Source of the DNA: Candidatus Aenigmatarchaeota archaeon
Lineage (GTDB): Archaea > Aenigmatarchaeota > Aenigmatarchaeia > QMZP01 > QMZT01
DNA length: 64,000 bases
Assembly (NCBI GenBank): GCA_026397315.1
Contig: JAPLVC010000006.1
Span: 64,001 to 128,000 of the forward strand
Direction: 5' to 3'
The translations under genes and the position numbers were made by a program. Under the pieces are notes generated by a model. That model had not been told where the DNA came from and searched no databases. It saw only the letters and a program-made list of their open reading frames with translations. Below are positions 12,288 through 13,877 of the stretch, piece by piece (position 1 is the first letter of the stretch; each line of letters begins with the position of its first letter).

Positions 12288-13877
12288 ATTCCGGCTGATC
12301 CTGCCGGAGGTCACTGCTATTCGGATATGACTAAGCCATGCAAGTAATGGGTTAAACCATTGCGTAAAGCTCAGTAACACGTAGTTAACCTGCCCTTAGG
12401 CCTGCCACAATCTCGGGAAACTGAGGCTAAAGACAGATGGGTAATAAAATCTGGAATGATTTATTGCTGAACTAAGGATGGGACTGCGGAAGATTAGCTT
12501 GTTGTCAGGATAAAAACCTGACAAGGCGATAATCTTTACGGGCCTTGAGAGAGGTAGCCCGGAGATGGATTCTGAGACAACAATCCAGGTCCTACGGGAC
12601 GCAGCAGGCGCGAAACTTTCCCAATGCACGCAAGTGTGAGGAAGATATCCGGAGTGCTCTCTCTTAGGAGGGGGCTTTTCTGGAGTCCAGACCACTTCAG
12701 GAATAAGGGGTGGGCAAGACGGGTGCCAGCCGCCGCGGTAATACCCGCGCCCCGAGTGGTGACCGCGATTATTGGGCTTAAAGCGTTCGTAGCCGGTTTT
12801 GTAAGTCCCCGGTGAAATCGATTGGCAAACCAATCGGCTTGCTGGGGATACTGCATTACTTGGGACCGGGAGAGGTTAGAGGTACTCCAGGGGTAAGGGT
12901 AAAATCTTATAATCCTTGGGGGACCACCTGTGGCGAAGGCGTCTAACTAGAACGGATCCGACGGTGAGGGACGAAAGCTAGGGGAGCGAACCGGATTAGA
13001 TACCCGGGTAGTCCTAGCTGTAAACGATGCCTACTAGACATCGGAAATCTCAAGGGGGTTTTCGGAGTCGGAGGGAAACCGTTAAGTAGGCCGCCTGGGG
13101 AGTACGGTCGCAAGGCTGAAACTTAAGGGAATTGGCGGGGGAGCACACAAGGGGTGGAGGCTGCGGTTCAATTCGACTCAACGCGGGGAACCTTACCAGA
13201 GGCGACAGCAGTATGAAGGTCAGACTTAAGATCTTACCAGACACGCTGAGAAGTAGTGCATGGCCGTCGTCAGTTCGTGCCGTGAGGTGTCGTCTTAAGT
13301 GACGTAACGAACAAGACCCACGCTTCATGTTGCTAACCAATTCTATTGGTGCACTCATGGAGGACCGCTGACGATAAGTCCGAGGAAGGTGTGGTCGACG
13401 GCAGGTCCGTATGCCCTGAATCCTCTGGGATACACGCGGCCTACAATGGATGGTACAATGAGATGCGACACCGAAAGGTGAAGCTAATCTCGAAAACCAT
13501 TCCCAGTTCAGATCGAGGGTTGCAACTCACCCTCGTGAAGCCGAAATCCCTAGTAGTCGCTGGTTAGCATCTAGCGGCGAATAAGTTCCTGCTCCTTGCA
13601 CACACTGCCCGTCAAGCCATCCGAGTGAAGTCTTGGTGAGGTTTTTCTTTCGAGAAAGATCGAACCAATTTTTTGCAAGGAGGGCTAAGTCGTAAAGTGA
13701 CGAGATGGGCAATTTGAGAGACTCCAAAAGAGTCTTTATGACAGCTAGAAGTGTGCGTCTTAAACGATAGAAACATGCTACGCATGTTTCGATCTACGCG
13801 ACTCTAGTGTAAAATATCATCTCATCACCCGATAAACAAGGTAACCGTACGGGAACGTGCGGTTGGATCACCTCCTT
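12288..13877 (+). rRNA. rrs: 16S rRNA, interrupted by a 141-nt intron at 13695-13835
   Basis: ATTCCGGCTGATCCTGCC start, GTGCCAGCCGCCGCGGTAA, GGATTAGATACCC, GGATCACCTCC end. Confidence 0.98.
13695..13835 (+). other. BHB-type archaeal intron in 16S rRNA between E. coli-equivalent A1499/A1500
   Basis: Removal restores AAGTCGTA|ACAAGGTAACC; central helix GTCG/CGAT, bulges TA^A and AA^A, terminal stem GTGA-c-GAGATG/CATCTC-a-TCAC. Confidence 0.9.

Follow-up and report, generated by a model that had tools for sequence, protein, structure and literature searches.

A 141-nt archaeal intron between positions 1499 and 1500 of an Aenigmatarchaeota 16S rRNA gene carries a candidate cis-acting guide for C1402

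We describe a 141-nt insertion in the 16S rRNA gene of Candidatus Aenigmatarchaeota archaeon (assembly GCA_026397315.1, contig JAPLVC010000006.1), contained in a 64,000-nucleotide stretch of DNA (positions 64,001 to 128,000 of the forward strand; hereafter the window, to which all coordinates refer) and located exactly between E. coli 16S positions 1499 and 1500. We find that the insertion resembles archaeal introns of the splicing-endonuclease class with a relaxed bulge-helix-bulge (BHB) motif, that it belongs to a family present in 30 of the 91 genomes of its order (Aenigmatarchaeota; DPANN), and that, to judge from the sequence, it most likely doubles as a cis-acting guide for methylation of C1402. 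The best explanation in our view, held with slightly more confidence than doubt, is that an intron spliced by the endonuclease EndA was co-opted by its host and became a half-mer box C/D guide that would act in cis on C1402. New here are a BHB intron in rRNA at a new site and in a new lineage, and the putative half C/D guide built into it; literature searches made mostly outside subscription journals turned up neither this BHB family nor any C/D guide borne by an rRNA intron.

The 16S gene reads ...GGGCUAAGUCGUA up to the upstream splice site, is interrupted by the insertion and resumes with ACAAGGUAACCGUACGGGAACGUGCGGUUGGAUCACCUCC, the true 16S 3′ end (Table 1). Excision of the 141 nt gives back AAGUCGUA joined to ACAAGGUAACC, the equivalent of E. 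coli A1499 and A1500, and alignment to the Rfam archaeal small-subunit model, the check suggested in the initial annotation of this DNA, is clean as far as AAGUCGUAA (...GGGCUAAGUCGUAA) and loses register thereafter. Relatives of the same family that lack the intron read AAGTCGTA followed without a gap by ACAAGGTA, and the insertion is therefore exact. On sequence alone, the run of A residues would allow the junction to shift by one base; the BHB geometry selects 1499/1500, where the initial annotation had placed it. There is a single 16S copy in the whole assembly (1.05 Mb, 7 contigs), and the one rRNA operon in the window comprises 16S from 12288 and 23S at 14565–17695. No contiguous site for the universal primer 1492R occurs within the window with 2 mismatches permitted, which, with the restored consensus, confirms the claim that the intron splits this site and supports the expectation that amplicon surveys of genomic DNA with 1492R would probably miss the organism. 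The absence of an intron-borne open reading frame (ORF), likewise claimed at the outset, holds for the + strand, which has none longer than 21 aa, and no Rfam family matches the 141 nt.

A fold of the junction, computed on 13675–13855, pairs the exon strand GUCG (1494–1497) with the intron strand CGAU as the central helix H, next to an intron-internal helix P1 (h′). Helix H is 100% paired in 25 aligned relatives, with an end pair that is either G-U or G-C. Across the 25 aligned introns, the 13 pairs of P1 are formed in 96% of cells, with compensatory double changes at 6 of them, as compared to only 25–53% for control structures slid by 1–3 columns. P1 is closed by G-C in 13 of these introns, by A-U in 10, and by an A·C mismatch only in the window intron and its sister (genome G003), so that most relatives present a clean 3-nt 5′ bulge. 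On the exon side, A1493·C1501 and A1492·A1502 are mismatched and only two pairs follow; the exon–exon helix h is thus missing, and the motif is of the relaxed HBh′ (bulge-helix-loop) form rather than strict hBHBh′. The initial reading of this junction, with both outer flanks mismatched and a cut after the second base of each 3-nt bulge, is therefore borne out by fold and sequence, the exon–exon helix being essentially absent and the intron-side closing pair an A·C in the window. Archaeal BHB substrates are canonically cut in this register, and pre-tRNA introns share the layout, with positions 36-37 before the intron and 38 after it. The multi-arm structure noted at first stands: its AGACUC/GAGUCU and CUAGA...UCUAG arms are both present in the minimum-free-energy (MFE) fold, and what had been overlooked is the conserved kink-turn and the C1402 guide-like element described below. 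A kink-turn at the BHB bulge itself was rejected, as the next pair is Watson-Crick and covaries.

These features support assignment of the 141 nt to the archaeal splicing-endonuclease introns with a relaxed BHB motif, and the host encodes proteins suited to such a substrate. Its only EndA homologue (395 aa) can be aligned along the entire protein with PDB 4FZ2 (E 3e-104), the three-unit epsilon2 enzyme of ARMAN-2, which cuts relaxed HBh′/hBH as well as strict motifs (PMC3488258). RtcB is encoded (521 bits), as are L7Ae, Nop5 and fibrillarin. A second match to the L7Ae/L30e family (PF01248) lies at 51466–51738 (- strand); its 119-aa open frame contains one in-frame TGA. Since EndA and RtcB are available and the A1499/A1500 site is the core of the decoding centre, we think it highly probable that splicing by these two proteins is the only plausible fate of the insertion.

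The family was delineated from its junctions. A junction-pattern census of the 91 genomes gives 29 positives; the thirtieth (G051, locus L126) has an exon that is further split by a mini-intron inside AAG/UCGUA. Among 40 relatives searched with the 16S 3′ region, the 1499 site is occupied in most and empty in some; the intron-less junction AAGTCGTAACAAGGTA is read in G007, G011, G016, G038 and G074, and G025 is intron-less as well. The exon/intron junction pattern, run against 185,579 species genomes, returns 28 archaeal loci (30 archaeal hits), mostly Aenigmatarchaeota where a phylum is named, and a number of bacterial hits well inside chance expectation. The shortest of the 31 distinct introns has 70 nt and the longest 795 nt. 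In the 795-nt member (G018) a 251-aa ORF (P0001; E 1.6e-10 to LAGLIDADG_3) replaces the variable arm and ends on the last UAA of the intron. A search with this homing endonuclease finds 27 homologues, and a metagenome scan recovers the known locus and one fragment only; within the order, the gene occurs in 1 of the 91 genomes, and the family is therefore now inherited almost wholly without a homing enzyme. The same few bases of 16S host other insertions. Genome G040 holds at the 1499 site a 50-nt BHB intron without the guide module, and G075 (L180:1236–1530) carries an ORF-less group I intron after U1498 (RF00028 full length, 70 bits, E 8e-18), one base upstream of the BHB intron site, a case relevant to whether BHB introns have taken the place of group I introns. 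In some relatives (16S 3′ ends L052, L053 and L067), three or four introns crowd into the final 50 nt of 16S. They lie at 1499/1500, at ~1502/1503 (ACA/.../AGG), where that of L067 contains a LAGLIDADG ORF, and inside helix 45, where the intron of L052 carries a LAGLIDADG-like ORF.

Outside P1 and H the introns are unalignable except for one conserved core. Every member reads A, seven variable paired bases, AGAYGGGCA-A-nnn-GA, a hairpin, N-R-U and GA-Y; the hairpin directly adjoins the first GA and leaves exactly three unpaired bases before the second. This layout is found in 24 of the 25 aligned introns, and in 29 of the 31 distinct introns by an automatic test and a 30th by eye, with hairpins that are mutually unrelated in sequence. 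With its canonical stem, its 3-nt bulge and its tandem sheared G·A pairs, the core bears the hallmarks of a kink-turn, and specifically of one of the box C′/D′ kind, with a single internal D′-hairpin-C′ and relaxed boxes, nUGA and N-R-U-G-A-Y. The D′-like box is UUGA in 13 introns, AUGA in 6, CUGA in 5 and another sequence in 5, the C′-like box is RUGAY (GAC in 19, GAU in 10), and covariation (A-U, U-A, G-C) is frequent at the pair equivalent to box C position 6 with box D position 1. Across five families, neither the 8-nt element upstream of the box nor its spacing changes, and the kink-turn signature is likewise constant. A box C/D small RNA (sRNA) encoded in the rRNA spacer of the window (14453–14533) has the same D′-hairpin-C′ layout and the same UUGA box, and reads C (GCGAUGA), guide, D′ (CUGA), hairpin, C′ (AAUGACGA, with box AUGACGA), guide, D (UUGA). 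Two other readings of the core were discarded: GGGCAA as a GNRA loop, given that G27-G28 lie in P1 and that some members have GCAU or GCAG, and an H/ACA guide, whose unpaired target would be A1398–C1399 and whose only ACA is exonic, ~20 nt away versus the 14–15 needed.

The 8-nt element of the core forms 8 bp with 16S 1400–1407, and the fifth base upstream of the D′-like box, G13709, faces C13608, the equivalent of C1402 and a conserved site of 2′-O-methylcytidine (Cm), in keeping with the N+5 rule. The predicted guide:target duplex (-15.2 kcal/mol) is ~1 kcal/mol more stable than all of P1 (-14.1 kcal/mol), and it appears in the unconstrained MFE fold of 13590–13880, where it closes the base of helix 44. 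Position 1400 of this 16S is U rather than the near-universal C, with the stretch reading ACACACUGCCCGUC, and the same U is found in all 16S of the order examined with that stretch recovered. A second element, GUGUGC/GUGCAA, lies 7–11 nt past the C′-like box and is complementary to the adjoining 1390–1397, over a mean of 5.4 nt in the 31 members as compared to 3.4 nt in shuffles; it is suggestive of further 16S antisense, and because GUGUGC also matches another 16S site we give it little weight. E. coli, yeast, human, plants and Pyrococcus abyssi all carry a ribose methylation at C1402, a modification common to all three domains (PMC11542601), and Cm1402 was measured in Nanoarchaeum equitans, where its guide sRNA was not found (PMC5389701).

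The register-specific pattern GAYGGGCA-NNN-TGA, searched in intron-less relatives, returns conventional C/D sRNA genes; such genes were found in 13 genomes, and G007 has a further candidate. In G011, G016 and G020 these read AUGAUGA-...-AUGAUUAU-GACGGGCAAG-CUGA; in G032, G040 (two copies), G062, G063, G074, G075, G083 and G090 this sequence recurs with ...CAAU-CUGA and a T-run; and in G038 (L120/L130) and G061 (L129) they take the form of a compact RNA with a single kink-turn, GGGGGG-AUGAUGA-19 nt-CUGA-CCCCC, a natural half-mer guide predicted to target C1402. The G007 candidate, AUGAUGA-AAAU-ACGGGCAGG-UUGA, spells its guide differently; all the others carry the intron's guide, including the unpaired A opposite C1399, in the general form ...AUGAUUAU-GACGGGCAAn-CUGA, and all, G007 included, keep the N+5 register of the intron. 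The stand-alone sRNAs (e.g., G011, G016, G074 and G038) thus share with the intron the guide GACGGGCAA, one spacer base, the NUGA box and the predicted target C1402, and they differ in being free-standing genes with boxes C, C′ and D, often with a T-run. No match of at least 8 nt to the rRNA of the window was found for their D′ spacers.

We find that a stand-alone guide and a guide-bearing intron never occur in one genome. Where the 1499 site is readable, a stand-alone guide is present in 0 of 30 genomes with the module and in 7 of 8 without it; these seven are five intron-less genomes, G040 with its 50-nt guide-less intron and G075 with its group I intron, and it is therefore the module, and not the presence of an intron, that anticorrelates with the sRNA. 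A Fisher test gives 6e-7, a value that is overstated, as the relatives are not independent and the metagenome-assembled genomes (MAGs) are incomplete. Genus g38 contains both states (G073 versus G074), and g32 probably does too (G064 versus G062 and G063, the latter two without a recovered 16S). Relaxing the guide pattern brought up numerous matches in intron-bearing genomes; apart from one in G035, these fall in fully open reading frames and were rejected as coding.

Taken together, these observations suggest the following course of events. In the precursor, exon GUCG would pair with the intron's penultimate CGAU and form HBh′ together with P1; the epsilon2 EndA would cut after A1499 and before A1500, RtcB would join the exons, and RtcB would probably also circularise the excised intron. 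Before this, the guide could pair in cis with 1400–1407, the 5′ strand at the top of helix 44, once it is transcribed, and this duplex would be expected to form first because the 3′ strand of P1 is made ~110 nt later. L7Ae would bind the kink-turn and Nop5 and fibrillarin would be recruited, with 2′-O-methylation of C1402 as the result. On release of the ribonucleoprotein the inner half of P1 (AGAUGG with UCAUCU, invariant) would re-form and complete the BHB, followed by the EndA cut and ligation by RtcB. Precedent for guide pairing and a BHB that exclude each other comes from Euryarchaeota (Haloferax, Pyrococcus), whose pre-tRNA-Trp carries a BHB intron with a cis-pairing C/D guide. That intron has complete C/D and C′/D′ motifs and two guides, whereas the window intron has one D′-hairpin-C′ and one candidate guide, resides in rRNA and would address C1402. 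A broader reading, which seems to us evenly balanced between right and wrong, is that the intron is a domesticated cis guide first and a BHB splicing substrate afterwards, that loss of the module would demand a free-standing sRNA, and that the locus, which also holds group I and LAGLIDADG-bearing forms, would record transitions among ribozyme introns, mobile introns spliced by proteins, introns with a guide and free sRNAs.

Several points weigh against a methylation guide. There is only one kink-turn, i.e., at most a half-mer, and archaeal C′/D′ half-mers are not always active in vitro; no terminal box C/D motif was found in the intron, with no D box near its 3′ end, and a terminal kink-turn or true box C before the guide was rejected, as the sequence there (GUGACGA here, GUGAUGA in G022 and G036) is Watson-Crick paired in P1 and variable elsewhere. 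The guide is short: it forms just 8 bp with 16S, one of them a G-U in most members, and the 8-nt match by itself is not unique in the operon, an equal match occurring at 17190–17197 inside the presumed 23S intron. The guide overlaps five P1 bases, which makes the methylation and splicing folds mutually exclusive and calls for a switch between them. As the target is invariant, guide–target covariation offers no evidence. Finally, the complementary distribution is based on incomplete MAGs and pattern searches; intron-less G025, 84% complete, has no stand-alone guide, and the G035 hit, in an intron-bearing genome, is ambiguous.

Some of these points are what would be expected if the spliced BHB intron used its kink-turn and antisense as a folding chaperone or assembly checkpoint, assisted by L7Ae and without ribose methylation, transient pairing to 1392–1407 holding the decoding-centre strand and aiding BHB folding. 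The single kink-turn without a terminal C/D motif fits this proposal, as does the bipartite complementarity of GAYGGGCA and GUGUGC, which flanks A1398–C1399 and resembles the pairing of snR30 and U3, non-modifying guide-like chaperones. C/D sRNAs of N. equitans have, moreover, been proposed to delay the folding of helices 44/45 (PMC5389701). The proposal leaves unexplained, however, why canonical sRNAs with the same guide and the same N+5 register occur precisely where the module is missing, and why the spacing to nUGA is strictly constant, and we consider it possible but unlikely. That the intron is instead a selfish remnant without homing endonuclease or host function, its core reflecting descent and the needs of splicing, is improbable. 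One member does keep a LAGLIDADG ORF, the gene being confined to 1 of 91 genomes, and other mobile introns use the same site (PMC6125680; PMC11270868); yet the five families keep a constant 8-nt element, spacing and kink-turn in introns that have for the most part diverged beyond alignment, the sequence constraint exceeds what pairing would require, and the module is anticorrelated with the stand-alone guide.

The remaining alternatives concern splicing itself. Some lineages tolerate rRNA insertions, and the 141 nt could in principle be retained in the mature rRNA as an expansion segment, or the rRNA be fragmented there; this is very improbable at a site in the core of the decoding centre, with a BHB geometry conserved by covariation and with intron-less junctions that are identical. 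An assembly artefact can hardly be credited when the same insertion recurs in ~30 independently assembled species, and neither can a degenerate self-splicing group I intron, even with the true group I intron of G075 one base upstream: the ends are not U/...G, there is no catalytic core in 141 nt, and RF00028 gives no match in the window intron even at E 5, in contrast to the 70 bits of the G075 insertion.

The nearest known systems differ from the window family in instructive respects. In a compilation of archaeal 16S introns by Jay & Inskeep 2015, none of the 13 loci is near 1499 (PMC4496867). The initial remark that this is not a common archaeal intron site is thus correct as to that compilation; it overlooked both a lineage-wide family and a known homing site at 1498. 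The BHB introns of Thermoproteales, Desulfurococcales and Aigarchaeota (PMC4496867) also interrupt conserved primer-site stretches, have a BHB junction and a host EndA, and exist as long LAGLIDADG-bearing and short remnant forms. The window family is unlike them in its site (1499/1500), its mesophilic DPANN host, its epsilon2 EndA and its relaxed HBh′, and its short forms keep a core of kink-turn and candidate guide whereas theirs decay to simple hairpins. At 1498, a group I intron (IB4.26, SSU/1498) was reported on a Micrarchaeota contig by Nawrocki et al. 2018 as a new site for this class (PMC6125680), and bacteria of the Candidate Phyla Radiation carry LAGLIDADG-bearing insertions at 16S position 1498 (PMC11270868). 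These elements occupy the same few 16S bases but are self-splicing ribozymes or insertions that end after U1498; the window intron has no ribozyme core and would follow the protein endonuclease pathway.

Guides for the same P-site cytidine are also known, and with these the window intron would share predicted fibrillarin targeting; they act in trans, from their own transcripts or hosted in mRNA introns, in contrast to the candidate guide of the window, which lies inside its target rRNA. Yeast snR70 and human SNORD43 are guides for C1402-equivalent methylation. The plant U43-type snoRNA AtU43/At1gCDbox192 guides Cm1645, the C1402 equivalent (PMC11542601), and Iho sR11 of Ignicoccus is a guide for the C1402 equivalent as well (PMC5389701).

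Table 1. Coordinates of the 16S exons, the intron and its elements in the window.
Feature	Position	Strand	Basis or remark
16S rRNA exon 1 (to E. coli A1499)	12288..13694	+	Rfam SSU_rRNA_archaea, 1352 bits
Proposed target UGCCCGUC (U1400-C1407), C1402 = 13608	13606..13613	+	Complementarity
Central BHB helix H, exon strand GUCG (1494-1497)	13689..13692	+	MFE fold; pairs with 13830-13833
5′ bulge U-A/A, splice site after 13694	13693..13695	+	Fold geometry
141-nt intron, HBh′/BHL-type (bulge-helix-loop), archaeal splicing-endonuclease class (assignment supported)	13695..13835	+	31 distinct homologues
P1/h′ helix, 5′ strand	13696..13708	+	Pairs with 13817-13829
Guide-like element GAUGGGCA, complementary to 16S 1400-1407	13704..13711	+	GAYGGGCA invariant, 31 introns
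Box D′-like UUGA	13714..13717	+	Spacing GGGCA + 4 nt + GA constant in all members
Kink-turn canonical stem, hairpin GAGACUC-CAAAA-GAGUCUU (predicted)	13718..13736	+	Hairpin closes here in 29-30/31
Kink-turn 3-nt bulge UAU, then box C′-like GACAG (predicted)	13737..13744	+	Bulge always N-R-U
Variable arm B	13743..13811	+	LAGLIDADG ORF occupies its place in the 795-nt homologue
Second element GUGUGC, complementary to 16S 1392-1397	13751..13756	+	24/31 members at least 5 nt
P1/h′ helix, 3′ strand	13817..13829	+	Covariation in relatives
Central BHB helix H, intron strand CGAU	13830..13833	+	CGAY invariant in all family members
3′ bulge/loop A-A/A, splice site after 13835	13834..13836	+	Sequence; no closing exon-exon helix
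16S rRNA exon 2 (A1500 to 3′ end, GGAUCACCUCCU)	13836..13877	+	ACAAGGTAAC...GGATCACCTCC located

Elsewhere in the operon, the 23S gene contains an insertion of ~188–190 nt (17063–17253) in a helix loop at model position ~2571, in the H89 region by the peptidyl-transferase centre, with CUGA and UGAUGAUGA motifs; it is strongly structured (z = -6.1) and presumably another BHB intron for that reason. At least two introns, placed at non-canonical positions, interrupt the spacer tRNA-Ala gene (13973–14107). Across the 64-kb window Rfam finds a single tRNA (47564–47632) and ARAGORN none; the ARAGORN blank is explained by intron-rich tRNA genes.

A practical consequence concerns surveys of this lineage. 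Intron-bearing organisms have no contiguous 1492R/1492-1510 primer site on genomic DNA, and full-length amplicon surveys therefore miss them; about one third of the sampled genomes of the order are affected, and most of those with the 16S end assembled. The finding, if true, would describe an rRNA intron that serves its host by installing the sole small-subunit ribose methylation shared by the three domains, which would explain how an intron without a homing endonuclease gene persists in reduced genomes, would extend the tRNA-Trp paradigm to rRNA and would echo the intron-hosted snoRNAs of eukaryotes. The site also offers a natural replacement series, comprising a group I intron, an intron with a homing endonuclease gene, guide-bearing introns, a guide-less intron, no intron and a stand-alone sRNA, and this series bears on how guide RNAs and introns swap roles.

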